NCBI RefSeq assembly: GCF_053078305.1
Contig: NZ_CP166879.1
DNA length: 64,000 nucleotides
Strand: one strand, 5' to 3'
Shown: piece after piece, positions 5,294 through 61,369 of the stretch
Layout: each line of letters starts with the position of its first letter
How positions within the stretch are numbered: position 1 is the stretch's first letter
Notes under the pieces: model-generated
What the model was told of the DNA's origin: nothing
The model's database searches: none
Seen by the model: only the letters and a program-made list of their open reading frames with translations
Translations under genes and position numbers: made by a program

Positions 5294-5387
5294 CGCATTT
5301 TGCCCCTGTAAAATCAGGGGCTTTCTGGTAAGGTTTTCTACTGATACAGGAATGCTTACCAGAAATTAGCCAGGGTTGGAGCGCGAT

Positions 5388-8794: not shown

Positions 8795-8871
8795 AGCGCG
8801 GTGCGGATGTGCGCCAACACACCCGCACCGCTAATCACAATCACTATTTATAGGGAATAGCAGTTATGACT
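8795..8871 (-). ncRNA. symR: Probable SymR antisense sRNA covering the symE ribosome-binding site and start codon (boundaries approximate)
   Basis: On the minus strand inside the 5' end of symE there is a sigma70-like promoter (TTCTGC-N17-TAGAAT) that would start transcription about 3-6 nt inside symE and read antisense across its RBS. This matches the known SymR arrangement. Confidence 0.4.
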
Positions 8872-22565: not shown

Positions 22566-25500
22566 ATGGCTTCGACAAATGCGCATCAAATAAAAAATAA
22601 TGATCAAAACTCTTTATGTGGTCTGGGTGACAAAATACGCCGCCTGACCGCCGGAGTTTGTTTATTTACACAATTTTTTTTCCCCGTCATGGCGACGGCA
22701 CAAAATGTGGTACACGCTAAACCTCAGACGACAGTTTCATCTGCCCCCCCTCTACTAGAAAATAATACGGTGCCTTACACGCTTGGTGCGCTGGAATCAG
22801 CGCAAAGCGTTGCTGATCGATTCGGTATTTCACTGGAGGAGCTTCGTCGTCTTAATCAGTTCCGTACTTTTGCTCGCGGCTTTGATAACGTGCGCCAGGG
22901 TGAAGAACTGGATGTTCCGGCAACAACCTCGCAGAAAAGCCATGAGCAACAAAATGCCGTACCGCCTGCGAATGGCGAAAACACGCTGGAGAATCAAATA
23001 GCCAGCACCTCGCAGCGAGTTGGCACTCTGCTTTCACAAGATATGAATAGTGAGCAGGCCAGCGGCATGGCGCGTGGTTGGGCGTCTTCAGAAGCCTCTG
23101 GCGCGATGACTGATTGGTTAAATAACTTTGGCACTGCGAAAATCTCTCTGGGTGTGGATGAAGATTTTAGCCTGAAAAATTCGCAATTCGACTTCCTGCA
23201 TCCGTGGTATGACACACCTGATTATCTGCTCTTCAGCCAGCATACCCTTCACCGAACAGACGATCGTACCCAGATCAACACCGGTTTGGGCTGGCGTCAT
23301 TTCACCTCCAGCTGGATGTCAGGCATCAACCTGTTTTTTGACCACGACCTGAGCCGCTATCACTCCCGCGCAGGGCTTGGCGCAGAATACTGGCGTGATT
23401 ATCTGAAGTTGAGCAGCAACGCTTATATCGGCCTGACCGGCTGGCGTAGCGCACCAGAATTGGATAACGACTTCGAAGCCCGCCCGGCCAACGGCTGGGA
23501 TTTACGCGCGGAAGGCTGGTTACCTGCCTGGCCACAACTGGGGGGAAAACTGGTCTATGAACAATACTATGGCGATGAAGTGGCGCTGTTTGACAAGAAT
23601 GATCGTCAAAGTAACCCCCATGCTATTACCGCAGGCCTCAACTATACCCCCTTCCCGCTTCTGACTCTCAGTGCGGAACAGCGTCAGGGGAAGCAAGGTG
23701 AAAATGACACACGTTTTGCCGTTGATCTGACCTGGCAACCCAGCAGTTCAATGCAGAAACAGCTTAATCCGGACGAAGTGGCCGGACGGCGCAGTCTGGC
23801 CGGTAGTCGTTATGACCTGATTGATCGCAACAACAACATCGTTCTGGAATACCGCAAGAAAGAGCTGATTCGCCTGAGTCTGCTGGATCCGGTGAAAGGG
23901 AAGTCTGGAGAAATAAAACCGCTGGTTTCCTCGCTACAGACCAAATATGCCCTGAAAGGCTATAACATCGAAGCCGCTGCGCTGGAAGCTGCCGGAGGTA
24001 AAGTCAGCACGTCTGGAAAAGATATCACGGTCACGCTGCCAGGTTACCGCTTCACTAACACCCCAGAAACCGATAATACATGGTCGATAGACGTTACCGC
24101 CGAGGATGTAAAAGGTAACCTGTCACGGCATGAACAAAGCATGGTAGTTATTCAGGCTCCGACATTAAGCCAGAAAGATTCTCTGTTATCCGTCAATCCG
24201 CTAACCGTGGCTGCAGATAAAAAATCGACGACCACATTGACCGTTACTGCGCACGATTCCGACGGAACTCCGGTGCCGGGGCTGGCGCTGCAAACCCGCA
24301 GTGAAGGCGTTCAGGATATCACCCTGTCTGACTGGACAGATAACGGTGATGGTAGTTACACACAGATACTGACCGCCGGAACGACATCAGGTTCAGTAAC
24401 ACTGACGCCGCAAATTAACGGTGAGAGTGCGGTAAAAGAATCCATCGTCGTTAATATCGTCCCTGTTGTCTCATCCCGCGACCATTCATCAATAACAATT
24501 GATAACGTATCGTATTATGCCGGAGACGACATCAAGGTTAGGGTGGAACTGAAAGACGACAGCAATCAACCGGTTGCATATCAAAAAGAGGAATTGGTAA
24601 AAGCCGTTACTGTCGAAAACAGCAAACCTGGCACCACGATTGTCTGGCACGAAGAGCAGCCGGGGGTTTATGCCGCGAATTATCCGGCCCATAAGCAAGG
24701 GACTGCACTAAGGGCACAACTTAGCCTTCACAACTGGAATGCTCCACTGCAATCGCATATTTATAACATTGAGGCAAACCAGAATAAGGCTCGCGTTGCC
24801 ACATTATCAGCGACAAATAATGACGTTTACGCCGATAAAAAGACATTTAATACCCTCACGATCAACGTCACTGATGAGAGTGATAATCCCCTGACAAATC
24901 ATCAGGTCACCTTTAAGAATGAAAAAGGAAGCGCGGAGTTTGTCGAACCGCCGCAGCAAAATACGGATGCATATGGTGTTGCCACAATAAACATGGTAAG
25001 TCAGGTTGCGGAAGAAAATACGATTAGCGCCACGCTGCCAAATGGTTTCTCACAACGGATAATTGCGAAATTCGTTAGCGATTCGAGTACGCCAAAATTC
25101 AAACAACTGGTTGCCGATCCAGATACCATTATTGCTGGCAACAGCCAGGGCAGTACTCTGACCGCCATCGTCACAGACTTTCATAACAACCCGTTAAAAG
25201 ATATGAAAGTGAATTTTGTGGCACCTGGTGGCTCGCAACTGGACAACACGACCGCCACAACAGACCAGTCCGGTATTGTGCGGGTGCACCTGACCAGTTC
25301 AAAAGCTGGTAGCTATTCCGTCGATGCCTCGCTTGAGGTGGATAAAAATATTCACCAGTCGGTCACGATCACCGTGGTCCCAAACAGGGAACAATCGGTA
25401 ATGACCTTGAATGCCGGGTCGGGCAGTGCGATCGCTAACAATACAAATATCGTTACCCTGACTGCCAGTGTGAAAGATGTTTATGGACACCCGTTGCCGG

Positions 25501-27806
25501 ATGAGGATGTGAAATTTACCTTGCCAGCCTCCATGACCGGGAACTTCACGCTAAGTAGTGAAACCGCCCGCACCGATGCAAACGGTGATGCCGTGGTCAC
25601 ATTGCGAGGCACAAAAGCGGGTGAGTTTACAGTTACGGCGACGCTGACCAGAAATAATACCGTTGTTTATCAGCAAGTCACTTTTATTGGGGATACAAAC
25701 AGTGCGCAGCTCCAGCCGCTGACTGCCTCATTAAATTCCATTGTTGCGGGTAACAGTACGGGGAGTACCCTGACGGCAACGATCCTGGACGCTTACCAAA
25801 ATCCGCTTAAAGACCAGTTGGTCACTTTCCAGAGTAACGATGTCACTCTAAGCGGAACAGAAGTCACCACCAATACGCTGGGTCAGGCGACGGTAACAAT
25901 GACCAGCAATATTGCCGGGCAACATAACGTCGTGGTGAGCCGGAAAGCGCAAGCCTCCGATAATAAAACGTTTAGTTTATCAGTGCTCCCGGATGAAAGT
26001 TCGGCGAAGGTAATAAGTATAACCGGAGCCGAAAAAACGATAACGGTTGGCGAAAACATCACGCTACGGATACTCGTCCAGGACGCGTTTAACAATGTAA
26101 TCGCGGGTCAACGCGTCAGATTAAGTGCGCAGCCAACAACTAACATTACGATAGGCGATACGGCTTACACCGATAATAACGGTTATGCGTACGTTAACCT
26201 TCTCAGCACCCAACCTGGGGTTTATCAGGTGACGGCAACGCTGGACAATAACAGTAGTAGTAAGGTTGACGTGAATGTGGCAAATGGCAAACTCGAGTTA
26301 ACATCATCGAAACCAGAAACCACGGTCCATAATAGTGAGGGTATTACGCTGACCGCAACGGCGAGAAATGCGCGGGGTGAATTGATGCCAGGGCAAATTA
26401 TCACCTTTAGCGTAACGCCTGAAGGTGCAACGCTAAGCAATACAGGGGAAGTCCTTACTGACCAGTCAGGTCAGGCCAAAGTGACGCTGACCAGTGACAA
26501 AGTGAATGTCTATACCGTTACGGCCATAATGAGCAAAGATGTTCCCGTTCAGAGCCAGGTAACGGTTGCGGTTAAGGCAGATGCTAAAACGGCACATGTT
26601 GTGAGCGTCGTGGCTTCTCCTGACACCATCACCGCCGACGGCATCGATAGCAGCACCATCACTTCACGAGTAGAAGATGATTACGGATTCCCGGTTGAAG
26701 GTGTCGATGTTAGTTATACCTTAGACACCAAAGGTCGCCCGGTAGTTAATATTCCAACTACGCGTACCGATCAATCCGGGCAAGTCACGGCGACAATAAC
26801 CAGTACATTGGCAGAAACCTTAACAGTCAATGTGCAAGTTCCTGGTACAGCCAACCAATCCGCAGCTATTACCTTGATTGCCGGCACGGCGGATGAAAGT
26901 AAGTCAATTTTGAAATCCGACGTTAGCACTCTGATGGCTGACTACCAGCATAGCGCGAAACTTACGCTAACATTGCAAGACAAGTACGGTAACCCGATAG
27001 TGACGTCTGATCATCTGGAATTTGTCCAGTCAGGTCCCTTCGTGAACTTTCTCAAGTTGAGCGATATTGATTACAGCCAAAGAAATTATGGCGAGTACAC
27101 CGTGACTGTCACTGGCGGAAAAGAGGGAACAGCGACTCTCATTCCCATGCTGAACGGGGTTCATCAGGCAAACTTAAGCGTATCGCTGAATCTCATCCGC
27201 TCGATAAAAGAAATGTCCGGTCATGTCACTGCAAACAACCATACCTTCTCCACGGCTAAATTCCCGAGCGAAGGTTTTGCAGGAGCGTATTACACACTCA
27301 ACAATGATAACTTTGAAGCGGGTAAAACCGTTGATGATTATATGTTTTCAAGTTCACAGAGTTGGGTGTCGGTCGATGCTTCAGGTAAGGTTTCTTTCGC
27401 AAATATCGGCGATCAAACGTCAGTCACAATAAGCGCTGTTCCCCGACAAGGAGGTACAACCTACCAGACCTTAATTAAGCTGAAAGGCTGGTGGGTGAAT
27501 AATGGAAATCATACCAATATCTGGCTAGCTGCCAATGCGCTCTGTCATGCTAAAAATGATGGATATAATCTTCCAGGCATCACACATTTGACGTCTGGCG
27601 AAAACAAACGCACGCAGGGATCACTGTATGGTGAATGGGGGAACGTTGGAGCGTTTTCCAGTAATTCGCAATTTACACAAGGAGCTTACTGGACAAGTGA
27701 ATCTGATGATTACAATCGGCACTACTATGTGCAGATGCTAACCGGTATGACTGGAAGCGACGCTGATTCCAGCCCCCAACTGACCGCCTGCCGTAAATCA
27801 CTATAA
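22566..27806 (+). CDS. Inverse-autotransporter (intimin/invasin-family) adhesin with LysM, beta-barrel, many Ig-like repeats and a C-terminal lectin-like domain
   Basis: 1746 aa. N-terminal LysM-like segment (YTLGALESAQSVADRFGISLEELRRLNQF), an intimin/invasin-type barrel region, then about a dozen roughly 100-aa Big_1-like repeats, and a Cys-containing C-terminal domain. Confidence 0.7.
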   Translation: MASTNAHQIKNNDQNSLCGLGDKIRRLTAGVCLFTQFFFPVMATAQNVVHAKPQTTVSSAPPLLENNTVPYTLGALESAQSVADRFGISLEELRRLNQFRTFARGFDNVRQGEELDVPATTSQKSHEQQNAVPPANGENTLENQIASTSQRVGTLLSQDMNSEQASGMARGWASSEASGAMTDWLNNFGTAKISLGVDEDFSLKNSQFDFLHPWYDTPDYLLFSQHTLHRTDDRTQINTGLGWRHFTSSWMSGINLFFDHDLSRYHSRAGLGAEYWRDYLKLSSNAYIGLTGWRSAPELDNDFEARPANGWDLRAEGWLPAWPQLGGKLVYEQYYGDEVALFDKNDRQSNPHAITAGLNYTPFPLLTLSAEQRQGKQGENDTRFAVDLTWQPSSSMQKQLNPDEVAGRRSLAGSRYDLIDRNNNIVLEYRKKELIRLSLLDPVKGKSGEIKPLVSSLQTKYALKGYNIEAAALEAAGGKVSTSGKDITVTLPGYRFTNTPETDNTWSIDVTAEDVKGNLSRHEQSMVVIQAPTLSQKDSLLSVNPLTVAADKKSTTTLTVTAHDSDGTPVPGLALQTRSEGVQDITLSDWTDNGDGSYTQILTAGTTSGSVTLTPQINGESAVKESIVVNIVPVVSSRDHSSITIDNVSYYAGDDIKVRVELKDDSNQPVAYQKEELVKAVTVENSKPGTTIVWHEEQPGVYAANYPAHKQGTALRAQLSLHNWNAPLQSHIYNIEANQNKARVATLSATNNDVYADKKTFNTLTINVTDESDNPLTNHQVTFKNEKGSAEFVEPPQQNTDAYGVATINMVSQVAEENTISATLPNGFSQRIIAKFVSDSSTPKFKQLVADPDTIIAGNSQGSTLTAIVTDFHNNPLKDMKVNFVAPGGSQLDNTTATTDQSGIVRVHLTSSKAGSYSVDASLEVDKNIHQSVTITVVPNREQSVMTLNAGSGSAIANNTNIVTLTASVKDVYGHPLPDEDVKFTLPASMTGNFTLSSETARTDANGDAVVTLRGTKAGEFTVTATLTRNNTVVYQQVTFIGDTNSAQLQPLTASLNSIVAGNSTGSTLTATILDAYQNPLKDQLVTFQSNDVTLSGTEVTTNTLGQATVTMTSNIAGQHNVVVSRKAQASDNKTFSLSVLPDESSAKVISITGAEKTITVGENITLRILVQDAFNNVIAGQRVRLSAQPTTNITIGDTAYTDNNGYAYVNLLSTQPGVYQVTATLDNNSSSKVDVNVANGKLELTSSKPETTVHNSEGITLTATARNARGELMPGQIITFSVTPEGATLSNTGEVLTDQSGQAKVTLTSDKVNVYTVTAIMSKDVPVQSQVTVAVKADAKTAHVVSVVASPDTITADGIDSSTITSRVEDDYGFPVEGVDVSYTLDTKGRPVVNIPTTRTDQSGQVTATITSTLAETLTVNVQVPGTANQSAAITLIAGTADESKSILKSDVSTLMADYQHSAKLTLTLQDKYGNPIVTSDHLEFVQSGPFVNFLKLSDIDYSQRNYGEYTVTVTGGKEGTATLIPMLNGVHQANLSVSLNLIRSIKEMSGHVTANNHTFSTAKFPSEGFAGAYYTLNNDNFEAGKTVDDYMFSSSQSWVSVDASGKVSFANIGDQTSVTISAVPRQGGTTYQTLIKLKGWWVNNGNHTNIWLAANALCHAKNDGYNLPGITHLTSGENKRTQGSLYGEWGNVGAFSSNSQFTQGAYWTSESDDYNRHYYVQMLTGMTGSDADSSPQLTACRKSL

Positions 27807-39664: not shown

Positions 39665-40567
39665 TTATTGATAAACAAAAGTCACGCCAATAATCGATTG
39701 CACATTCCCTGCAGTCACCTGCCCTCCGGTACGTGCGTAATTTGCCGTTAATCCCAGACTTACCGCCGAAGTTCCTACTGCTCCTAACGATACCGTGTTA
39801 TTCGCTGGAATAATCGTACCGTTGCGCGTCAACTGTACGCCGACGCCCTGCGCTGGTGAAAACGACGCGGTATTGGTGAAAATCGAGTTGCCCGCATCTG
39901 CGGTTGTGCCGGAGAGGTAATACCCCAGGTTTTGGCTTTTCGCACAATAAACGGTAAGAGGAATTGGCACTGAACCAGGGTAGTCCGGCAGAGTAACAGT
40001 GACATCACGAGCAGAAACATCGCAGCCGCCAGTAGGCACCACCACATCATTATTGGCGTAAATATTCCACACAAACTGGAAATCATCGCTGTTATAGTTG
40101 TTGGTCTGTCGCAAAATAAGCACGGCAATTAATGAGCCAGCTTTAATCGCCACCCCGCCCGCACTGCTCACAGGCGTCAAATAAAGCGCCACCGGCCACG
40201 GCTTATCCGTTCTCGAATTATAAACAACCCGCGGCGTTTCGCTGGTGGTCGGAAATGGATAGCTACTGCCACTATATTTTACGGTCCCGGAAAAATTAGA
40301 TAACACGCCGCCATAAGCCGAGCCTCGTTGCAGTGTGACATAGTCTGTAATGGTTTCCGGATAATCGTTATGGCAAAAGATTTGCGTCGAAAGATCTACG
40401 ACCAGGTTTTGCCCCACATTCACGGCAGGCGCAAGGTTTACATAAACATTAGCGCTGCCACCGCCAATAGGGATAGCGGTACCATTGGCGGTTTTACAGG
40501 CGAATGACCAGGCATTTACCGACCAGCCCATCAGCAGTACAGCAAACAGGGTAATAACTCGTTTCAT
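39665..40567 (-). CDS. fimH: Type 1 fimbrial mannose-binding adhesin FimH
   Basis: 300 aa, MKRVITLFAVLLMGWSVNAWSFACKTANGTAIPIGGG…. Confidence 0.9.
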   Translation of the reverse strand: MKRVITLFAVLLMGWSVNAWSFACKTANGTAIPIGGGSANVYVNLAPAVNVGQNLVVDLSTQIFCHNDYPETITDYVTLQRGSAYGGVLSNFSGTVKYSGSSYPFPTTSETPRVVYNSRTDKPWPVALYLTPVSSAGGVAIKAGSLIAVLILRQTNNYNSDDFQFVWNIYANNDVVVPTGGCDVSARDVTVTLPDYPGSVPIPLTVYCAKSQNLGYYLSGTTADAGNSIFTNTASFSPAQGVGVQLTRNGTIIPANNTVSLGAVGTSAVSLGLTANYARTGGQVTAGNVQSIIGVTFVYQ

Positions 40568-40586
40568 TACAATTATCTCTTCGGGT

Positions 40587-41090
40587 TCAGCTGTAGGTAT
40601 AGGTGATGCTAATCACTGCCTGAATGGTTCCCTGAGTGGCTCCGCCATTTACCGTCAATGCTCTGACCTGTAACGGGAAGTGCGCTGATTGTGAGGAATC
40701 ATCCACCTGAACTGTTTTGGTTGCGCCAGTATTCAATGTGTTGCCACTGTCATCCTGTAGCTCTAACTGGATGTTTTGCGCGGTCCCCTGGTTTTTATAA
40801 TATCCGGTACTGTCGGCTGCCCCGCTGAAGCTGGCAGTGACCCTCGACGTTCCCACCGGACAATTAGTCAACTCAAGCGCAACATCATGCCAGGCCGATG
40901 CCGCCCCGGCAGACATCAGACTGAAAGAATAAAGATCGCCGAGATCAACCGTGGCATTGGTGGTGGAAACTGTGCACGGTTTGGCGACGACCTTACCGTT
41001 CACCGTGATGGTGACATCAGCTGCCTGTATCGTCGCACTTGCGAGCGCCAATATTGCCGCCAATAAATACCCACGTTTGCGCCATTTCAT
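40587..41090 (-). CDS. fimG: Type 1 fimbrial minor subunit FimG
   Basis: 167 aa from MKWRKRGYLLAAILALASATIQA…. Confidence 0.85.
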   Translation of the reverse strand: MKWRKRGYLLAAILALASATIQAADVTITVNGKVVAKPCTVSTTNATVDLGDLYSFSLMSAGAASAWHDVALELTNCPVGTSRVTASFSGAADSTGYYKNQGTAQNIQLELQDDSGNTLNTGATKTVQVDDSSQSAHFPLQVRALTVNGGATQGTIQAVISITYTYS

Positions 41091-41102
41091 GAGCATCTCC
41101 AG

Positions 41103-41633
41103 TTACTGATATTCGAGAGTGAAGGTAGCCGTGGCATTGATATGCCCCGCAGTGACAGGCACCTGTGTCGCCATTAGCCGGGCGTAAAAATTCAACGTAT
41201 TTGGTTTACCCGGCGTCAGGGTCGTCCACGAAATCGCGGACGATGGAGCATTAAGGGGTATCTGATTTTGCTGCTCATTCAGAAGCTGTATTCCCAGTCC
41301 CGAAGCCGCTGACACCGTATTTTCAAGTGCAAGCAGGTTGGCATTGTGGCTATCTGCAACGCCGGTAAACCCAACCTTTACGGCAGAAACGGCGTTACCA
41401 CAGGGTGACAGCAAAATACGAAATGGAACGACAGGAGTCGTTGCGCCAATGTTGTTAAATTGCTTCGCCGCGTTTTCCATCAGATCAACAGTAAAATTGG
41501 CTGATTCAGCGGCCACACTACAGCCGTTATCTCTGACATAGCCGCGGATAGTAATCGTGCTATCCGCAGCCAAAACGCGACTTACCGCCAGCCACAAAAA
41601 AGCGCACAGAAGATAAAAAGGTTTGTTTCTCAT
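41103..41633 (-). CDS. fimF: Type 1 fimbrial minor subunit FimF
   Basis: 176 aa from [18 protein letters not shown]…. Confidence 0.85.
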
Positions 41634-41642
41634 CACGCCCCC

Positions 41643-44279
41643 TTAACGACATTCAGCTGATAGCTGGGTTAATAACTGCTGCTGACTCTCTGGTGGCAGT
41701 TGATAATTGGCGACACAGTGAGCATTTTCCTCTTCTCCCCATTTCACCTGAACTTTTCCCGCTAGAGGCATTCCGCTGAGGTAAACCTGACCATTATCCG
41801 CAACAATGCCGCTACTCTGGCTACTCTCTGATGTCACCATCGCCCCGAACGGCAGCGGCTTATTATTGTGGGTTAGCGTCATGAGCAGTTTTATCCCAAC
41901 GCGCGCTTTAAACTCTGCTCGCACGATCGCCCCACGAGTGGGAACAACGTTAGCGACCGCGTTATCTAAATCGACGTTATCAGCCAGGGTATTGGTATCC
42001 AGCGCCACTCTGTTTTCCCGATATTCGGTGGCATAAGGCAGCACGGCATAACCGCGCCAGTCGGTACGCACCCCCGTCTGGTTTTCGACTTTTGCATCTT
42101 TTGCGCCAGGCGCTTTAACAAGTACCACCGTATCGTTTAACGGCTGCCCCAGCGTTACACCATTGGCATGAGCCAGTACCCCACCGCTGACTCCGTAATA
42201 GAGCTGCTTAATATCATCGCTATGGCTGTAACCGATATTGGCATTGCCGTAACCACCGCGATAATTCAGCGTGGTGTAGCCTGTACTTCCGCTATTACCA
42301 TCGCCTCCCCCGGCATAGCCGGTTTGCACGCTATAACTGAGGTTGTTGTCTTCCAGCAACGTACCGTATACACCAGCCAGATTGGTCATCCGACCGTTGA
42401 GATCGTGTGACATGCTGTAGCTGGCACTGGCATGTCGCCACTGAGATTTACTGTCAGAACGCAGCCAGTGGCTGAAAGGAATATTGACGTTAAGCGCTAA
42501 CATCTGATCCCGTCCTTTTTGCCAGGCGTTTTTCGTCAGGCTATAGCTGAGCGTCCAGTTGATATCTTCGAACGCAGTATTTAATCCAGCCTGGAATTGC
42601 TCATCGACATTACTCGTTCCCCAATAAGTTTGATGGCTACCACTCAAATACAGTGTTGATGTGCGCCCGAGTTGCTGAGTAACGGTGAGCTGTAATTTCC
42701 CGCGTTTGTTATAAGCGAGGTTGTAATAGTCGGTGAATTTCGGCTTAACCTGAATAACTCCGTCCTGTGTTTCGATGTTGTAGCCATTCATTCGACTGTA
42801 TGTTGTATCAGCGAAATTAAAATATCCGCTGGTCGAATAACGGTAACCCACTAACTGAATATTCGTGCCTGACTCATTGAGCGATTTGTTATAGAGAAAA
42901 CGCACCGATTGTCCGTCATGCTGACTGTCATCGGGAAGTGTGGAATTAGCCTGCGTCATATCCACAGACAGAGCGCCCAGTGCCCCCATGTTTTTCCCGA
43001 TACCGAAATTAAAAGCACGATAACGATCCGCCAGTTGCGTTCCACCATATATTGTCCAGCCAGCCGGAAGGCCGTGGAGTAATGTACTCTGGAAAAAGCG
43101 GGTTTTTTCCTGCTGCGCATTTCCACTACGGTATTCTCCTGCCGTAATGGAATAACGAGTATGCCCTTCACGTTGCAAAAGCGGGACTGACGAATAGGGT
43201 ACGGTAAAAATCTGCGTGCTGCCGTCAGCCTCTTTGATCGTTACCTGCAAGTCACCACTATTACCTGCGGCATAGATATCGTTGATGGTAAAAGGCCCCG
43301 GTGGCACCGTACTATTATAAATGTCATACCCATTTTGTTTAATAGTGACCTGTGCAGTACCACGAGCAATACCGTGGATCACCGGGGCAAATCCTCTTTG
43401 GCTATCGGGTAACATATTGTCATCTGAGGCCAATTGTGCGCCGCGAAAGTTAATACCATCGAAAATATCGCCCTGAGTATAACCATCACCCAGCGTCAGC
43501 CGGGAACGTAAAGGAATTATGTCTCGCTCAAGCCAGGTATTGATATGCTGCCATTTATTTTTGCTACCTGATGAACTGTCGCTACTGTTATAACTCCAGG
43601 TGGTATTGTCGCGTAAACGCCACGCACCAATATTTAACCCACTCTGTAGGTTTAAATATGCATAATGGCTGTTACCCCCAATCCGATTCTGTACACTATT
43701 TCCGCTGAAATTATAATTGAGCAATCCGGCATTAATACCAGGATCCCATAACTCAGGAGGAATATAACCACGCGCGCGATTACTCATAAATGCCTGAGGG
43801 ATCGTCAGGTTCAGTCGCTGCTGACCAACATCTAAATGCGCAGTAGCGTCCTGGACCATTGTGGTTAATGGCACACAGGCATCATCCGCCAGCAGATTCA
43901 TACCGGCGACAGAAGCCGTATTCAGCCCCATACTGGCAAGTTGCGCGCGTGTCAGGCAGGGAACAATCCCTTGTTCACTGTCGCCCGTATTAAATGTGAC
44001 ATCACGCGTTGCCATATAACCATTATTCAAATAGATATCGACACGATACGTCCCTGGCGGTAATTCTTGCCCATTTTCAAAACGCGATAAATCGGCCACA
44101 GCCTGGGGATCATCCGCTAAAAAACGCGGGTTAAAATAGAGTTCGGCAGATGACAAAGGTGCCTGTGCGGCAAAAGCACAGGCAACAAAGAGCCGGACAA
44201 AAAAACCAGCCAAACGATGCTTACGAATATGCAAGCATTGTGTGTTTCGCTGGTAAAGTCTTAAATTCAGATATGACAT
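41643..44279 (-). CDS. fimD: Outer-membrane usher FimD
   Basis: 878-aa usher at the conserved position. Confidence 0.9.
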   Translation of the reverse strand: MSYLNLRLYQRNTQCLHIRKHRLAGFFVRLFVACAFAAQAPLSSAELYFNPRFLADDPQAVADLSRFENGQELPPGTYRVDIYLNNGYMATRDVTFNTGDSEQGIVPCLTRAQLASMGLNTASVAGMNLLADDACVPLTTMVQDATAHLDVGQQRLNLTIPQAFMSNRARGYIPPELWDPGINAGLLNYNFSGNSVQNRIGGNSHYAYLNLQSGLNIGAWRLRDNTTWSYNSSDSSSGSKNKWQHINTWLERDIIPLRSRLTLGDGYTQGDIFDGINFRGAQLASDDNMLPDSQRGFAPVIHGIARGTAQVTIKQNGYDIYNSTVPPGPFTINDIYAAGNSGDLQVTIKEADGSTQIFTVPYSSVPLLQREGHTRYSITAGEYRSGNAQQEKTRFFQSTLLHGLPAGWTIYGGTQLADRYRAFNFGIGKNMGALGALSVDMTQANSTLPDDSQHDGQSVRFLYNKSLNESGTNIQLVGYRYSTSGYFNFADTTYSRMNGYNIETQDGVIQVKPKFTDYYNLAYNKRGKLQLTVTQQLGRTSTLYLSGSHQTYWGTSNVDEQFQAGLNTAFEDINWTLSYSLTKNAWQKGRDQMLALNVNIPFSHWLRSDSKSQWRHASASYSMSHDLNGRMTNLAGVYGTLLEDNNLSYSVQTGYAGGGDGNSGSTGYTTLNYRGGYGNANIGYSHSDDIKQLYYGVSGGVLAHANGVTLGQPLNDTVVLVKAPGAKDAKVENQTGVRTDWRGYAVLPYATEYRENRVALDTNTLADNVDLDNAVANVVPTRGAIVRAEFKARVGIKLLMTLTHNNKPLPFGAMVTSESSQSSGIVADNGQVYLSGMPLAGKVQVKWGEEENAHCVANYQLPPESQQQLLTQLSAECR

Positions 44280-44345
44280 TATTCCTCCGGTTTAAAATCA
44301 CCCGGCAGTCAATTCTTTTTATTCAGGCGAAAAATTCCCCCTGCG

Positions 44346-45071
44346 TTATTCCATTATGCCCGTCATTTTGGGGGTAAGTGCGCCATAATCATTTATTGTT
44401 CGGTAAGTAATATTGCTTCCTGCATCAGAAGGCAATTTAACCGTGCTTTCGCCCATTGGAGGCACCAAGGCATTTTCAAGAACCCGGGTTCCGGCATTCA
44501 ACTCTGTTACCGTCAGGTAATAGGGTGTCGGGTTAATCAGCGTCAGAGAATTCGCGCTACGACGAAATCTTAATTTTTCTGCGGCCTGATCGGATGGCAA
44601 CGCTAATTTAGCCGGACGATAGTACAGTTTAATGCGGCTGATAATTGCGAGCTGTAGCGTATTCTCAGTCAATTTTGATTTATCCATTGACGGAATCGCT
44701 TTAACGTTCATCCAGAATAAACTTTCCCGGTCCTGTGGCAATTGGTTATTTGTTGCATCAAGAATACGCAAGGTATTCTCTTTTTTTCCCTTCATCGCAA
44801 ACAGAGGAGGCGTCACGATAAAACGACCATCCTTTACACCATCGGCATTTTCCACCCATGATTGAATTAAATAGGTACTATTTTCATCATTATTTGTCAC
44901 GGCAAGTTGCACTTGTTTTTGCCCTGCCGGATAAATTACGCGAGTCGCACCTAAGGCCACTCCCGCTTCAGCGCGTCCGGCAACCATCATTGCCATGAAC
45001 ATCAGGATACCTGCCAGCAAGCAGAATGTTATTTCCTGCGATTTCCTTACATTGACGTTTTTATTACTCAC
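44346..45071 (-). CDS. fimC: Periplasmic chaperone FimC
   Basis: 241-aa PapD-like chaperone. Confidence 0.9.
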   Translation of the reverse strand: MSNKNVNVRKSQEITFCLLAGILMFMAMMVAGRAEAGVALGATRVIYPAGQKQVQLAVTNNDENSTYLIQSWVENADGVKDGRFIVTPPLFAMKGKKENTLRILDATNNQLPQDRESLFWMNVKAIPSMDKSKLTENTLQLAIISRIKLYYRPAKLALPSDQAAEKLRFRRSANSLTLINPTPYYLTVTELNAGTRVLENALVPPMGESTVKLPSDAGSNITYRTINDYGALTPKMTGIME

Positions 45072-45107
45072 TGTCCTGTTCCTGTTATCACATTATCTGC
45101 TGAACAA

Positions 45108-45647
45108 TTACTGATAGGTTAAAGAGAACCAGGCCTGGGCATTGGCGATGCCGCCAGTAACCCGACGCCCGGTAGCACGATATTTGGCGATGAAATGTAG
45201 CGAAGTAGAGCCTGAGTAAAGCCGTTTCCAGTTTGCTGGAGGACGATTAATCGGTACGAGGTTTCCTTCATCATCAAACAACGCTACGCCAATATTGGTG
45301 GCTATCCCTGGCCCCTCTCCCACGGAAAGCACATCCGGATTTTTACCATCCGCGACACCGTGAAACGCCACACCCACACGTTCACTCACCACCGTGCTAC
45401 ATTCCCGTAAATGAATAACAAAAGGCACCGGTGCGCTATCTTCCCCTACCGCATGAAACCGGTTACTGCTGATTTGCCCCATATTGACCGTCATTTGTTT
45501 ATCACCGGCTTCAATCCGGCAAGTTTCCGCAATAATGACGCCCTGAAATTGCATATTTCCGCCGGGCAACGTGGTATTCCATTTATTTCCGGCCAGAGCA
45601 AACATTGGCAGCAACGACGCTAATAGAAATAATCTCTTCCTTTTCAT
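45108..45647 (-). CDS. fimI: Fimbrin-like protein FimI
   Basis: 179 aa from [19 protein letters not shown]…; the longer ORF upstream is probably untranslated. Confidence 0.75.
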
Positions 45648-45711: not shown

Positions 45712-46260
45712 TTATTGATACTGAACCTTGAAGGTCGCATCCGCATTAGCTGCGCCAGGGGTTGCGACACCGGTTGCATAATAACGCGCCTGGAACGGAA
45801 TGGTGTTAGTACCGTTATTCAGGGTTGTTTGCTCACTGAATGTCGCACCATCCAGCGTCAGCGCAGCACCCGTTCTGTCCAGGATCTGCACACCAACGTT
45901 TGTTGCACTACCTGCAGCAGAACTCTGCAGAGCCAGAACGTTGGTATGAGTCGCATCAATCGCCGTACCTAAAAAGGCAACAGCGGCTTTTGATGCAACA
46001 TTGGTATCGCAATCATTCAGCTGAATGTTAAAACCGACAGCAGAACTGGTTGCTCCGTCCTGTGCCAGCGATGCGGTACGAACCTGTCCTAACTGAACGG
46101 TTTGATCCACAGAGCCTGCATCAACTGCGCAAGCGGCGTTAACAACTTCCCCTTTAAAGTGAACGGTCCCACCATTAACCGTCGTGGCAGCGGCCAGAGC
46201 CGCTGTAGAACTGAGGGACAGAGCCGACAGAACAACGATTGCCAGAGTTTTAATTTTCAT
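45712..46260 (-). CDS. fimA: Type 1 fimbrial major subunit FimA
   Basis: 182 aa from [23 protein letters not shown]…. Confidence 0.9.
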
Positions 46261-46379
46261 GCTGCTTTCCTTTAAAAAAACTATTTCTAAATCGACATGG
46301 GCAGTCGTTCTGTACACTTTGTTTTGTCAACGAGTTTGACTGCCAACACTGCACAGTTTTCCCCCAAAAGATGAAACAT

Positions 46380-46693
46380 TTGGGGCCATTTTGACTCATA
46401 GAGGAAAGCATCGCGCACAAACTTTTTCAGTTTATTTGTTGGCTTAATATTCTATTGTTATCTTTATTTATAGATTTTTATATTGCATGAGGTGGTTTTT
46501 GGAGAGAAGAATGAGGAAGATGCGTCGAGCCACAGAAACGTTAGCTTTACATATAGCGGAGGTGATGTGAAATTAATTTACAAGAGAAATAATTTACATA
46601 TCAAACAGTTAGATGGTTTTTGTCGTTTTTTAAAATTTTTATGCTTGAGAAAAAATACGTAACTTATTTATGATATGGACAGTTTGGCCCCAA
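46380..46693. promoter_or_regulatory. fimS: fimS invertible phase-variation switch (314 bp), apparently in the OFF orientation
   Basis: Bounded by 9-bp inverted repeats TTGGGGCCA (46380-46388) and TGGCCCCAA (46685-46693). The only good sigma70 promoter inside (TTGAGA-N18-TATGAT, 46645-46674) lies at the fimE-proximal end and points toward fimE, away from fimA. Confidence 0.7.
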
Positions 46694-46740
46694 TTGTCTT
46701 GTATTTATTTGTTTTTTAACTTTATTATCAATAAGTTAAA

Positions 46741-47337
46741 TCAAACCTCTTCTCTTTTTAATTTTTCGTTTATGAGATTATTTCTTTCCCATAATCCGGC
46801 AAAACGAGCAGCATTACTGGCGGTATAACGTACAGTATGGCGAATATTTCGATGCCCGAGATAATCCTGAATTAAACGAGTATCTGCACCACGCTCCGCC
46901 AGTTCATAACCGCAAGCATGCCTTAACATATGAGGATGAGTCTGCGTTACGGTTCCAGCTTCAATACCGGCATCACGAATAATGCGATAGGCCTGCTGGC
47001 GAGAAAGCCGACTCCCGCGGCGAGAAATAAATATAGCGTCGGTCCGGTCAGCGCCTTTCCAGTTAGCACGTTCCAGGGTCCAGCGTTCCACAGCTTCACG
47101 CTCATCAAAACGTAACGGGTGAACGGTAGAAAATCCGTTCTTCAGTCGGCGAATATTTATTCGACCTTCATTAAGGTCAAGATCCTGATAATGCAGATCA
47201 AGCAGTTCACTAATACGCATCCCATGCCGATATGCCAACAGAATAAGACAATAATCTCTGGCTCCCGTTGCCCCGTAACAAACCGCCTGCATCATGGCCT
47301 GAACTTCTTTACCGGTAAGATAACGACGTTTACTCAC
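46741..47337 (-). CDS. fimE: Tyrosine recombinase FimE (ON-to-OFF switching)
   Basis: 198 aa, MSKRRYLTGKEVQAMMQAVCYG…. Confidence 0.9.
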   Translation of the reverse strand: MSKRRYLTGKEVQAMMQAVCYGATGARDYCLILLAYRHGMRISELLDLHYQDLDLNEGRINIRRLKNGFSTVHPLRFDEREAVERWTLERANWKGADRTDAIFISRRGSRLSRQQAYRIIRDAGIEAGTVTQTHPHMLRHACGYELAERGADTRLIQDYLGHRNIRHTVRYTASNAARFAGLWERNNLINEKLKREEV

Positions 47338-47814: not shown

Positions 47815-48417
47815 CTATAAAACAGCGTGACGCTGTCGTCCTCTGGCTCTATCCCAGATGCCGTAAAAACGCCCTGCATTGCTGGCGGTATACCAGACAG
47901 TATGACGAATATTGCGATGCCCAAGATAATCCTGGATAAGTCGCGTATCTATTCCCATATTCGCCAAAGCAAAACCACACGAATGGCGTAACATGTGCGG
48001 ATGAATCTCCAGTGACAACCCGGCATTACCACCGGAAGTCGAGATAATATGGTAAAACTGTTGCCGAGAAAGCGGATTCCCCTTACGCGATAAAAATACC
48101 CACTCGCTCTCAGCATGCGGATAAGAAGTACGGATACTCAACCAGTTTTTTAAAGCCTGAATTTCTTTGTTCAATAGCGGGTGCGTTGTTGAAAAGCCTT
48201 TTTTTAATCGATGGATATATATACACTTTGCCTTAAGATCAATATCCGAAATCCTCAATCGACAAATTTCACTCGCCCGGAAACCATGAATAAAACAAAG
48301 CAAAGTCAGACAATAATTACGTGCTGCATGAGGCCCGGTATTTGCTGCTTTAAGGAGTGATTCGATTTCACTATGGGTCAGGAAGTTCCTTTTTTTGTTA
48401 TCAGCCTTATTCTTCAT
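47815..48417 (-). CDS. fimB: Tyrosine recombinase FimB
   Basis: 200 aa from MKNKADNKKRNFLTHSEIESLL…. Confidence 0.9.
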   Translation of the reverse strand: MKNKADNKKRNFLTHSEIESLLKAANTGPHAARNYCLTLLCFIHGFRASEICRLRISDIDLKAKCIYIHRLKKGFSTTHPLLNKEIQALKNWLSIRTSYPHAESEWVFLSRKGNPLSRQQFYHIISTSGGNAGLSLEIHPHMLRHSCGFALANMGIDTRLIQDYLGHRNIRHTVWYTASNAGRFYGIWDRARGRQRHAVL

Positions 48418-55049: not shown

Positions 55050-57320
55050 CTAATCATTTCCCTTACGAATATATGGGCCAAAAGCCCAAGAATCATAATA
55101 AGGGTGATGGACTAGTTTTTCATTAAATCGAACACTATAAGTTAATTTTTTTATATTTTTACGTACAGCATTAATACTGGGCAAAGAGGAAAGATAATCT
55201 ATAAACTTATCGATAGTGATTTCCCCTTCGCAACACTCAAACCCATCAATGATATTTTTCGCCATTTTTCCATTTTCATTTGTTTGATATATCACTCCAG
55301 GTATTCGTTGAAAAAAACTAGATAATGCATATTTGTCCGCTACATATGTATCATCCACATGATATTTCCCACCGAGCATAGTTGTAGTAACAATAAGCTT
55401 ATACACACCTTTGGGTTGCCATGTTGATGGTAGTTCGAATTCTTTAATGATCACATCAAGATGATTAAGATAATGTTCAGAAATTCGATTTATTTGTTGA
55501 AAATAAGAACGCATAAATTTATTATTATGATCATGTATTAATGAGCTATCTCCAACGATGTTACACACTTGCTGATAGTACTTACCATAATATATTGGTT
55601 GACCATTTGATTTTAGTTCTGTAAAAATCAAACAATCATCCAGGAGAATCACGCAATCGCACTGATAATTAGCATGAGCATCAATTGGAGAAGCTTTAAT
55701 CCCCGCATCACGAACTTGTTTTATAAATTGTTGCTCATGAAATCGCCCTTTACTTGCTTGAGAAATTTTTTTGGAACCAAATAATGACATTAGAGAGCGA
55801 GTCACTGAGCTATTTGCTATTAATGCAGGCATTAAGCATAAACCGTCCATACAGGGAATAAATGGGCAATCATTAAGATCATGTGATTTTGAATTGAAGG
55901 TAAAATAATCTATCAGTTTTTTTGCTGCATCTGCTGCAATCCCCTTACGTTGAAAGAATGATAACCAACTCTCACGGCTTTTTATGATCAGCCAGCGATC
56001 CAACTGTAGGGGTATAGGTTTTGTCGATGAAAATCTTTTGCTCATTTCTTCTTTAGATAACTCGACTAAACATTGATAAGCGTGCACCCAATTAAATAAT
56101 GATATATTCCCATATTCTTCATGAAGGTCATCAGGAGATATATTTTCCAACTCGCTTAGATGAAATGAGCTAAAAACGCCATCAGAATTTAAGTAAGATG
56201 GCATATGATCCTTTACCCAACTATTTAGATGAAAATGTTTGTTACTAAATTCATGAACTTCGCTATATAGATGTGACGCTCTCATCATTAGTCTATTTCT
56301 TGCAATCTCATAATCTCGGTATAAACAAAAACTATCAACCTCAAGAGAGTAAATGTTATTATCCAATTTTGTAAATACTGCACTACTTAGTCTGAAAAAG
56401 TCTCTTACTCTGCTTAATGAGTCAAAAACATTCCACTCATTAAGGTACCCTCCCATTGAAAGCAAGGTTTGTTTATTCACACAAGAAGTTAGTTTCAATG
56501 GCTCATGAGTCCGTAAATAAGAAAATATTCGTCCGGTGTAATTGGCTACCTCATCAAATGCCCTATCGATAACTCGAAAATATTCGATATCAGGTTCAGC
56601 ATGAATATTAATATTTTCAGAAACGATTACTCTGCTTAATGAGTCAAAAACATTCCACTCATTAAGGTACCCTCCCATTGAAAGCAAGGTTTGTTTATTC
56701 ACACAAGAAGTTAGTTTCAATGGCTCATGAGTCCGTAAATAAGAAAATATTCGTCCGGTGTAATTGGCTACCTCATCAAATGCCCTATCGATAACTCGAA
56801 AATATTCGATATCAGGTTCAGCATGAATATTAATATTTTCAGAAACGATAAATAATGGAAAAATCCTCTTCATTTTTTTAGGATCATTGACCACAACCAA
56901 GGATGATAATGATGATAAAAACATCTCACAAAACATGATGAGATTAAGTATTAATGCATGTGATTTTTTTGTATTTTTACGCCAAATACCAGCACATTTT
57001 GTAGCCGCAAAGAAAGAATTATTTATATCATGCATAATTTTACATTGACTCTCGAACTCAGAAATTAGTTCAATGTTATCAGGAAATGAGTTTACTAGCT
57101 CATTAATACATTTTTTGAATGTATTGTTATACTCAACTTCAGTCTGAACTGAAAATCTATTATAATAGATGGAAGATATTCTCAGCACATCCAAGGCGAT
57201 ATCTATACTAATATCATCTCTTTTTATGTACTCACAAAAAAAAGAACAAAACTGTTTCGGGTCGTTAGCAAGATTACTAATTCTAGTGGTATCATAAACT
57301 TTTTCCATTTTTCCATACAT
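55050..57320 (-). CDS. Large low-GC hypothetical protein (756 aa) with an internal 74-aa perfect tandem duplication
   Basis: Long minus-strand ORF with its own AT-rich upstream region and no recognisable family by eye. A possible PD-(D/E)XK-like motif (CDCVILLDD…TELK) lies in the C-terminal third. Confidence 0.5.
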   Translation of the reverse strand: MYGKMEKVYDTTRISNLANDPKQFCSFFCEYIKRDDISIDIALDVLRISSIYYNRFSVQTEVEYNNTFKKCINELVNSFPDNIELISEFESQCKIMHDINNSFFAATKCAGIWRKNTKKSHALILNLIMFCEMFLSSLSSLVVVNDPKKMKRIFPLFIVSENINIHAEPDIEYFRVIDRAFDEVANYTGRIFSYLRTHEPLKLTSCVNKQTLLSMGGYLNEWNVFDSLSRVIVSENINIHAEPDIEYFRVIDRAFDEVANYTGRIFSYLRTHEPLKLTSCVNKQTLLSMGGYLNEWNVFDSLSRVRDFFRLSSAVFTKLDNNIYSLEVDSFCLYRDYEIARNRLMMRASHLYSEVHEFSNKHFHLNSWVKDHMPSYLNSDGVFSSFHLSELENISPDDLHEEYGNISLFNWVHAYQCLVELSKEEMSKRFSSTKPIPLQLDRWLIIKSRESWLSFFQRKGIAADAAKKLIDYFTFNSKSHDLNDCPFIPCMDGLCLMPALIANSSVTRSLMSLFGSKKISQASKGRFHEQQFIKQVRDAGIKASPIDAHANYQCDCVILLDDCLIFTELKSNGQPIYYGKYYQQVCNIVGDSSLIHDHNNKFMRSYFQQINRISEHYLNHLDVIIKEFELPSTWQPKGVYKLIVTTTMLGGKYHVDDTYVADKYALSSFFQRIPGVIYQTNENGKMAKNIIDGFECCEGEITIDKFIDYLSSLPSINAVRKNIKKLTYSVRFNEKLVHHPYYDSWAFGPYIRKGND
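56405..56849 (-). repeat. Perfect 222-bp direct tandem duplication, in frame, inside the 756-aa ORF
   Basis: The two adjacent 222-bp copies are identical by eye and encode …SENINIHAEPDIEYFRVIDRAF…NEWNVFDSLSRV twice. Confidence 0.85.
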
Positions 57321-58285: not shown

Positions 58286-59154
58286 TCACATAAAAAGATT
58301 ATTAATTAGAGTACACTGTTGACATCCATTAATATCTACAGCTTTTAAAAAATCTGTGTTACTAATCAAAACAGCATTACTAACACCTGAAAACTGCAGC
58401 TGTGCATACATACCTAAGATAGATTTTTTTTCGTAATACTGAGATCTTCCTGTATAACTTTCACCAGTATTAGAACTTATAAATCGCCTCGTTCTTTCTT
58501 GTATCAATAAATTATTTTTAAGGAAGCTCAAAATATCTTGCTGCAATTGTTTGTTTTTGTTATGAAAATAACATAACAATTGATCCTCTAAGGTACCAAG
58601 CTGAGTGTTAACGTCATGAAAAATATACCCCCCCATTCACTCCCATTAAACTCAATAATACTTCCATTGGAGAGTTGAGTAGTATCTTCTAAACCTATCT
58701 CATTTTTAATCTCTGTTATTCTGGCATCAATGCCAAGTTCATCAGCATCAAAAAAATATAAAAATCTATATGCAATTTCTATACTGAAGTCATCTGTACC
58801 AGAAAGTTCTTTATACATAGTGACTAACTCAGCCCTTTCACGACTTCTGCCATCACCATTTAGATTATGTATAAAAATTAAGTTCCCGTTATGATAGAAA
58901 CAAACAGAAGGTAGTTTTGGCCCGTTTGGCTGAAAGCCAAGTTTTTTATCTGGAATTCTTACTTGACTTAGTTCTTTTTCAAAGCGTTTATCAAACGGTG
59001 GAGGTAATTGACCAATTTTAAGATCTTGAAGTTGGAATCCATTAACTAAAAGAATTCTGCTAAGAAAAGCGACGTCATGCTGTCCTTCACAAAAGGCAAC
59101 TATGACTCTATTATAAGATACACTCACAATTTTAGCCTCTAATATCAAGATCAA
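58286..59154 (-). pseudogene. Toprim-like (OLD/AriB-like) gene split by a frameshift at a G7 tract
   Basis: ORFs 58588-59154 and 58286-58636 overlap across a C7/G7 homopolymer (58628-58634). The N-terminus has VAFCEGQHD and a later FFDADELG (Glu … DxD), suggestive of a Toprim fold. Fusing the frames gives an approximately 300-aa protein. Confidence 0.45.
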
Positions 59155-61369
59155 TATTTTTTATCAAATAGCCAAATCTTTCGCCATCAGCCCTTTTCAC
59201 TACTACTTTATCGTCAACTTTGCTTAACTGAAATCCAGTAATGCAATCATTATTATAATCATTATTTAAAAAAGCTCTGATACATTCACCCGAATGTGAC
59301 GTAAGGAACACTTGCACATTGAAACGTTCTGCAAGTTGTTGCGTAAATTTAGTAAACTCCAATAGTAAACTATAATGAATCGCAGTTTCAAATTCATCAA
59401 TAAAAAGTACACCGTTACGACATGCAGCAAAAGATAAAGCTATATAAAAGATGCGCTGAATACCCTCTCCATAAGAAGTAAGATCGAAACTTCTGTTAAA
59501 ATCATATGCTGATTCTACGATAAACCTTTTGAGCTCCATGTCTTCAGTAAATCTGACATCTTTTATCGTTGGCTCAATTTTATTCATGAATTCAATAACA
59601 AGGCCGATAGCGGATTGTATATTTAAATCATCTGATTCTGAGTCAGTTACAGACGTTAAATTTGCACCTATACTTTTGTTATAATCAGTGAGCAAATCGT
59701 CTATATCGTAGAAATAAGGGCTTTTAAATGACGATGAACACAAATGCGAAACTTGATCAGCGTTCCTTCTCATACGTTCATGGATAAAAGTATGGACTGT
59801 GTTATTTCTAAATTCTCCATCAATGCTAGACTTTAAGCTATAAGATGCTATATAGTCATCTTGTTTATCAATTGAAGAATCATCATATTTAATCATTTCA
59901 ACAGTAACATTACTATCATCAAATACTCCTGACAAGATTATTTTATCTTGGAAAAGAGCATTTAGCAATGTTGGACTCAAAGTACTGATTTTATTTTTTT
60001 GCCTAATAAGATTAAAATGCGATGAAATATCATTACGCTGCGTCAATAAGTAAATTGCTTCAAGCAATGAAGTTTTTCCAGCATTATTAAAGCCAGCAAT
60101 GATATTAATCTTATTGAAATTATCCAATGAGAAGTTTTTAAAGAATTTATATTTTTTGATATAAATGGATTTAAAATGTTTTTTTACTCCATACTCAAAA
60201 TTAGTTGTATAGTTTCCTCCTTCGATATTTATAGCCATCTGCTTTGGCATTATTTGTGTTAGTTTTTCTTTTGCATCATCTAATAAGCGCAAATCCTCTT
60301 GGTTTATGAGGCTACTATATAGATTTAAATCCTTTAAGGCGTCTTCAAGCTTGCTTAAAGCATTTTTATAGTTTTGCTGATTTACTGAACCGCTCGCAGC
60401 TAATCCTCTTGCAAGGCTACGTTCATCCTCCATTACCTTCAAGGCTTTTTCATTATTGATGAACAAAGCAAGATCTCGTATCTCAAGAGATTTAGTAATT
60501 ATAGGTTCTAGCTCAACGTATTCACCATTACTTTCCTCTTCAATATCATCTTCTAGCTCATTTTTCTCAAGGTATTCATCTGTTTTAGAGATCCACGAAA
60601 AAAGCCTATCAAGATTCACTAAATTTCTAGCATAATAACCGTTATCACTCCAGTCTAACCAAGATTTAATTACAGGCTTTTTGATTATTTCTTCAAAAAT
60701 ACCAAACATACTTGGTTCGAATTGCTCACCATACTCACTTGTTTTATATAAGGAAATTAGATTATAAACTCTAAGCATAGAGCGAAGACGCGTTTTAGAA
60801 ATACCGAGCGAACTAACTAGCTCATCTTCTTTTTCAACATACTCATCTCGAGTTTTGTCTTCATATGGTTTTAAAAAATCATAAAGCAGTTTGGACTGAT
60901 TATATGTTGACCACTTTTTATTACCACTTATATGCTTTAATCCCATTACAATCAGATGTTTTTCAACATCTTGATTATTATGGATTTCGAAAGGAACACT
61001 TCTAAAAATAGATGGATCTAGTTTTCCAATATCAAACCCCTTTTCATATGCTTCTTGCAATGCTTTCAGCGCCGTTACACGACGATTTCCCTCAAGGACT
61101 AAATAATTGTTATCTCCTAAATCCTTTACTTGAATAACATCAACATCTAAGTATCCATTAGATTTAAAACTTGCTATTAGATCTTTGATATTCTCTTGTC
61201 TATTTCCTTCTATAAAAAAGCGAGTCCTACGCTGAATTGTTGGATCTAGCATGTCCTTTTCTGAGACTGGCTTGTGCTGGTCATTGTCAACAAAACGGTA
61301 GTTATTAGGATCTAGAAATAAATTTTTTAAATTTTTGCTAATGCGCGGGCGAATTTGCTCGACATTCAT
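59132..61369 (-). CDS. Fusion of an N-terminal ParB/Srx-like domain with a C-terminal ABC-type (SMC/RecF/OLD-like) ATPase
   Basis: 745 aa. ParB box LVLEGNRRVTALKAL near the N-terminus; Walker A GFNNAGKTS, Walker B LFIDEFE and H-loop LTSHS in the C-terminal half. Low GC. Confidence 0.6.
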   Translation of the reverse strand: MNVEQIRPRISKNLKNLFLDPNNYRFVDNDQHKPVSEKDMLDPTIQRRTRFFIEGNRQENIKDLIASFKSNGYLDVDVIQVKDLGDNNYLVLEGNRRVTALKALQEAYEKGFDIGKLDPSIFRSVPFEIHNNQDVEKHLIVMGLKHISGNKKWSTYNQSKLLYDFLKPYEDKTRDEYVEKEDELVSSLGISKTRLRSMLRVYNLISLYKTSEYGEQFEPSMFGIFEEIIKKPVIKSWLDWSDNGYYARNLVNLDRLFSWISKTDEYLEKNELEDDIEEESNGEYVELEPIITKSLEIRDLALFINNEKALKVMEDERSLARGLAASGSVNQQNYKNALSKLEDALKDLNLYSSLINQEDLRLLDDAKEKLTQIMPKQMAINIEGGNYTTNFEYGVKKHFKSIYIKKYKFFKNFSLDNFNKINIIAGFNNAGKTSLLEAIYLLTQRNDISSHFNLIRQKNKISTLSPTLLNALFQDKIILSGVFDDSNVTVEMIKYDDSSIDKQDDYIASYSLKSSIDGEFRNNTVHTFIHERMRRNADQVSHLCSSSFKSPYFYDIDDLLTDYNKSIGANLTSVTDSESDDLNIQSAIGLVIEFMNKIEPTIKDVRFTEDMELKRFIVESAYDFNRSFDLTSYGEGIQRIFYIALSFAACRNGVLFIDEFETAIHYSLLLEFTKFTQQLAERFNVQVFLTSHSGECIRAFLNNDYNNDCITGFQLSKVDDKVVVKRADGERFGYLIKNIDLDIRG

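Follow-up and report, generated by a model that had tools for sequence, protein, structure and literature searches.

The fim switch of an Escherichia coli genome, recorded in the phase-OFF orientation

In Escherichia coli, the promoter of the type 1 fimbrial operon, P_fimA, is carried on a short invertible element, fimS, flanked by inverted repeats, and phase OFF is defined in the literature as the orientation in which P_fimA is directed away from fimA. In the published work, the recombinases FimB and FimE bind to either side of each repeat and carry out the exchange inside it, with FimE acting mainly from ON to OFF and with IHF, Lrp, Fis and H-NS shaping the bias between the two states. The element is also said, in second-hand accounts, to hold a Rho-dependent terminator that acts on the fimE mRNA in phase OFF only. 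Lineages in which the switch is locked OFF have been described as well, namely EHEC O157:H7, through a regulatory deletion, and ST131, through an insertion in fimB. Here, we describe a stretch of 64,000 nucleotides from contig NZ_CP166879.1 (RefSeq assembly GCF_053078305.1), referred to throughout as the window, in which the interval 46380–46693 is best explained, taking the evidence as a whole, as the canonical E. coli fimS in phase OFF, a reading to which we give a probability of about 0.97.

The element is bounded by the nonamer TTGGGGCCA, of which an exact-match search finds exactly two copies in the window. One of these, at 46380–46388 on the plus strand, forms the fimA-proximal inverted repeat (IRR), and the other, at 46685–46693 on the minus strand, forms the fimE-proximal inverted repeat (IRL), giving an element of 314 bp (46380–46693) with both repeats included, which is annotated here on the minus strand. 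Beyond the 9-mer of IRR there is weaker flanking complementarity, extending out to 22 nt at 77%. An intact 314-bp element with 9-bp inverted repeats had already been proposed in a preliminary description of this DNA, and the proposal stands in full, both repeats being perfect and the interval exactly that claimed. Scanning the element for restriction sites reveals a sole HinfI site (GACTC, 46393–46397), which adjoins IRR in the present orientation, a sole BstUI site (CGCG, 46412–46415), also near IRR, and one SnaBI site at 46656; the published position of the BstUI site is between LRP-2 and IRR (PMC9993118). The HinfI site had been placed about 13 bp inside the repeat, which is right when counted from the outer edge of the repeat and wrong when counted from its inner end, which is only four bases away.

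As placed by open reading frames, alignment to E. coli K-12 MG1655 and RefSeq annotation, the element lies between fimE and fimA, both on the minus strand, and upstream of fimAICDFGH. The fimA gene (45712–46260, minus strand), identified by its open reading frame, the MG1655 alignment and the RefSeq annotation of identical DNA, encodes the major fimbrial subunit and is cut off from its promoter in the present orientation. The remaining genes of the operon, fimI, fimC, fimD, fimF, fimG and fimH, occupy 39665–45647 on the same strand as uninterrupted open reading frames, assigned from the lists of reading frames and from synteny with the annotated locus of ETEC6335. A stretch of 602 bp, from the 3' end of fimE to the 5' end of fimA, is 99% identical to MG1655 (NC_000913.3) and colinear with it, without inversion, so that a chance match is of no concern; within the element itself, 309 of 314 bases are identical. 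A longer query of 1.7 kb is 100% identical to ETEC6335, where the flanking genes are annotated by RefSeq as fimE and fimA. Judged by this identity, the element is fimS itself and not an analogue of it.

The best match to a sigma-70 promoter in the region lies at 46645–46674 on the plus strand, with the -35 hexamer TTGAGA at 46645–46650, a spacer of 18 nt and the -10 hexamer TATGAT at 46669–46674, the end of which is 10 bp from the fimE-proximal repeat. It agrees with the consensus at 10 of 12 positions, and TTGAGA-N18-TATGAT is unique in the 64-kb window, where 0.04 occurrences would be expected by chance. A consensus scan of 46200–46800 returned three promoter-like matches, where chance would be expected to yield 1.9; as the other two reach 9 of 12 positions each, the label of only strong sigma-70 promoter that this sequence had been given is a fair one. 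The match reads to higher coordinates, facing the fimE 3' end and leading away from fimA, whose ATG is at 46260 on the minus strand, in agreement with the earlier statement that the promoter sits just inside the fimE-proximal repeat and fires at fimE. We take TTGAGA/TATGAT to be the mapped fimA promoter from its position and from the promoter reportedly mapped by Olsen and Klemm 1994. Its position agrees with published schematics too, and a full-text literature search on these hexamers and fimA brought up no relevant paper. On the strength of this match, then, the element appears to carry a sigma-70 fimA promoter close to one of its repeats.

The orientation of the element was read with two published assays, run in silico. 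On the window as it stands, primers CMD1258 and CMD1259 define an amplicon of 650 bp that HinfI cuts into 411 and 239 bp, and with 46380–46693 reverse-complemented the fragments become 128 and 522 bp; the published fragments of this 650-bp product are 411+239 bp for OFF and 128+522 bp for ON (PMC6727828 and its supplement). Primers OL4 and OL20, combined with BstUI, yield 188+539 bp as the window stands and 434+293 bp when the element is flipped, the published values being 539+187 bp for OFF and 433+293 bp for ON (PMC9993118). With deviations of at most 1 bp, the unaltered window shows the OFF pattern in both assays, and the ON pattern appears for the flipped element alone. The promoter tells the same story, since P_fimA occupies the plus strand, with fimA at lower coordinates on the minus strand, which is the arrangement by which the literature defines phase OFF. 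The central claim of the preliminary description, a fim switch in the OFF orientation, is confirmed by the two digests and by a promoter that faces away from fimA, and its interpretation of a HinfI site near the fimA-proximal repeat as the OFF configuration is borne out by the published 411+239 pattern. It had also suggested alignment to a reference switch, and here the window proves colinear with MG1655, whose own orientation is OFF, so that the refutation proposed there, a match to the reference ON orientation, fails. No feature of the sequence speaks against the OFF call.

Other primers touch on the same question. The gel-shift primers BSFORBIO and BSREVBIO converge on the window as it stands; their source paper gives them solely as a gel-retardation probe, presumably the right end of the switch in phase OFF that the paper's Fis figure shows. 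A further pair, for a putative 559-bp HinfI assay, produces 358+201 bp as the window stands and 75+484 bp when flipped. A literature check matched its fimA-side primer alone, in unrelated virulence-gene surveys, and the OFF call leaves this assay aside.

Could the element in fact be ON, with fimA driven by a different promoter that faces it? A minus-strand sequence, TTGATA-N18-TAAATT (46604–46575), does point toward fimA and agrees with the consensus at 9 of 12 positions. With three promoter-like matches found in this AT-rich DNA against a chance expectation of 1.9, however, a match of 9 in 12 is no evidence of a promoter; the window is, moreover, colinear with MG1655. This arrangement was rejected because the HinfI and BstUI assays are both OFF in silico, the ON pattern arising from the flipped element only, and we consider it to have practically no chance of being correct.

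The phase-OFF orientation suggests how the locus would behave. Beside the fimE-proximal repeat and aimed at the 3' end of fimE, the promoter cannot read into fimA; fimAICDFGH would be left without a promoter, and no type 1 fimbriae would therefore be expected from cells with the present arrangement of DNA. FimB and FimE, encoded intact just upstream, would recombine the two 9-bp repeats and so flip the element, after which the promoter would read into the fim operon; when the element is inverted in silico, the -10 hexamer comes to lie on the fimA strand, 139 bp upstream of the start codon (ATG) of fimA. The base composition of the element also fits the published Rho-dependent terminator that truncates the fimE mRNA only in phase OFF, as the fimE-sense strand is C-rich and G-poor in the present orientation, with a C/G ratio of 1.76 as it stands versus 0.57 when flipped. 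The strongest 80-nt C-rich, G-poor stretch on that strand runs from 46567 to 46488 (minus strand; 28 C, 9 G) and is a candidate for the rut region of the OFF-specific terminator, a position that we infer from composition.

The switch looks competent and not locked, because fimB, fimE, both repeats and the genes from fimA to fimH are intact and the 16-bp deletion of O157:H7 is absent. Both recombinase genes are on the minus strand: fimE (46741–47337), whose name is given by RefSeq on identical DNA, encodes an intact tyrosine recombinase of 198 aa that shares 197 of 198 residues with MG1655 FimE and catalyses the ON-to-OFF step, and fimB (47815–48417) encodes an intact tyrosine recombinase of 200 aa, active in both directions, that shares 199 of 200 residues with MG1655 FimB. 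In PNUSAE145743, a genome presumed to be of the O157:H7 type, the gap between fimA and fimE is 16 bp shorter, and alignment maps the deletion to 46613–46628 of the window, a stretch missing from the locked-OFF switches of O157:H7 but present here; since it is retained, the element is not the O157:H7-type locked variant. No insertion sequence interrupting the locus was found in the list of open reading frames or in the MG1655 alignment.

These observations bear on a different view of the locus, in which the DNA itself holds the switch OFF, as happens in O157:H7 and in mutants of fimB or fimE, and the assembly records a fixed genotype instead of a snapshot of phase. Such a state has precedent in the O157:H7 and ST131 lineages, and the fimS allele of this strain is itself unusual: over the 66 nt just upstream of the -35 hexamer (46588–46653), identity of at least 99% is seen in 10 of the 3,416 matching complete genomes, most of the 3,416 differing from the window at two positions of this segment, and the window allele reads G at position 46616 and A at position 46634. 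Against a locked state, however, stand the two perfect repeats of an element of exactly 314 bp, the presence of the 16-bp O157:H7 segment, the full-length FimB and FimE, each one residue different from K-12, and a locus free of insertion sequences, and we judge it highly improbable. There is likewise only a slender prospect that the rare allele might alter promoter strength or the binding of cofactors and in this way shift the ON/OFF bias of the lineage. With the switch, both recombinases and the fim operon intact, the strain is expected to be capable of producing type 1 fimbriae once the element has inverted, and fimA is not to be read here as promoterless or defective.

How common the present orientation is among sequenced genomes was established by a census of 5,426 complete E. 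coli genomes, using junction queries of 129 nt, each spanning the repeat with 60 nt of flanking DNA on one side and 60 nt of the interior on the other. The whole 1.7-kb fimE–fimA query was dropped as an orientation test in favour of these junctions, being blind to orientation because the invertible part makes up only 18% of it and both orientations clear a coverage threshold of 80%. The window-type (OFF) junction on the fimA side was found, at a coverage of 80% or more, in 4,464 of the 5,426 genomes, and the flipped (ON) junction in 246 on the fimA side and 248 on the fimE side, two independent counts that agree. OFF is therefore the norm, recorded in about 95% of the complete E. coli assemblies in which the locus is present, where the unit counted is the assembly, as distinct from the independent lineage or culture, and O157:H7-type locked-OFF genomes are included. 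The undeleted 16-bp segment is present in at least 3,413 genomes, a lower bound because two rare substitutions in the window leave a single 28-nt megablast seed; under the conservative correction that all other genomes are assumed to be locked OFF, the share of OFF among those shown to carry the segment is still at least about 93%. The UTI89 reference is also OFF, according to the literature. Among the roughly 5% of assemblies recorded as ON is one of strain DH5alpha (NZ_CP026085.1), while MG1655 is OFF, and the recorded orientation thus varies among assemblies of K-12 derivatives. Taken together, these counts (4,464 OFF against about 247 ON) may serve as a baseline for reading the orientation of invertons in assemblies.

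What the orientation says about the sequenced culture is a separate matter. FimE drives fast switching from ON to OFF, and shaken cultures in rich medium are predominantly OFF. We infer that this assembly is OFF because ordinary cultures would be mostly OFF and a consensus would record the majority. The preliminary description had concluded that most of the culture lacked fimbriae, or else that the OFF allele was the assembler's choice, which is plausible and indeed expected; an OFF record is in any case not distinctive here, because about 95% of complete assemblies with the locus agree with it. Reviews of the system that were consulted for the rate of switching per cell and generation do not state it in those terms. 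A sizeable ON subpopulation (of more than 20%, for example) might have been collapsed into an OFF consensus, and the assembly would then say little about fimbriation: preparations of fimS DNA can contain both orientations where a single consensus shows one, as the literature records, and the 5% or so of complete assemblies that are ON imply that cultures are sometimes ON in the majority. The rapid action of FimE and the prevalence of OFF in shaken rich-medium cultures would speak against a large hidden fraction, as does the 95% share of OFF among assemblies, which is consistent with cultures dominated by OFF cells, and on balance we think such a mixture unlikely. An assembly is best regarded as capturing, for fimS, the orientation that prevailed in the sequenced culture at the time, usually OFF, as in MG1655 and UTI89, and the significance of the orientation here goes little beyond good annotation.

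Several other features of the window were observed in passing. Two adjacent open reading frames on the plus strand, 2288–3043 and 3040–3903, overlap by four bases and match, respectively, the N-terminal half (profile positions 3–260) and the C-terminal half (305–493) of HsdM, the methylase of type I restriction-modification systems; together, they resemble an hsdM that has been split or frameshifted. Its neighbours are an HsdS-like reading frame (3860–5293) and HsdR (5376–8651), and directly after the hsdR-like gene lies the SymR antitoxin RNA (Rfam RF01809, 94 bits; 8795–8871, minus strand), which marks a K-12-like 'immigration control' region. SymR was the sole match in an Rfam scan of the window, which returned no family for the fimS element, and a search of the 64 kb for tRNA genes found none. 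A reading frame at 17826–20000 (plus strand) encodes a protein of 724 aa with a pentapeptide-repeat region at about residues 380–690 and weak matches, all below threshold, to the Qnr, PipB2 and HetL families. Further along the plus strand, 22566–27806 encodes an inverse autotransporter adhesin of 1,746 aa with an intimin/IatC-like N-terminus that scores below the curated IatC cut-off; K-12 is not known to have such a gene at the equivalent position. Beyond the genes on the nanC side are two large reading frames on the minus strand, one of 756 aa (55050–57320), for which no NCBIfam match was found, and one of 745 aa (59132–61369), in which a short RecF-like ATPase motif is the only match, and these may be strain-specific island or defence genes. 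The corresponding region of ETEC6335 differs in holding other genes, among them a restriction endonuclease that binds phosphorothioated DNA and an HNH endonuclease.

Set beside the systems described to date, what the window shows is the well-known fim switch of the textbooks, in the state most often recorded. Its closest counterpart is the fimS of MG1655, which lies between fimE (b4313) and fimA (b4314) and is alike in its 314 bp, its repeats, its position and its OFF orientation; the differences amount to five substituted positions within the element (46416, 46476, 46584, 46616 and 46634) and three differences in the flanks. The switch of O157:H7, locked OFF by its 16-bp deletion, shares with the window the locus, the orientation, the repeats and the promoter hexamers, but lacks the 16 bp that the window keeps at 46613–46628. 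A more distant likeness is seen in ipuS and hyxS of uropathogenic E. coli and in the fimS of Klebsiella, which follow the same logic, in that a short piece of DNA between inverted repeats carries a promoter and is turned by tyrosine recombinases of the FimB family, yet are found at other loci and with repeats other than those of the window, which in the case of ipuS are of 7 bp.
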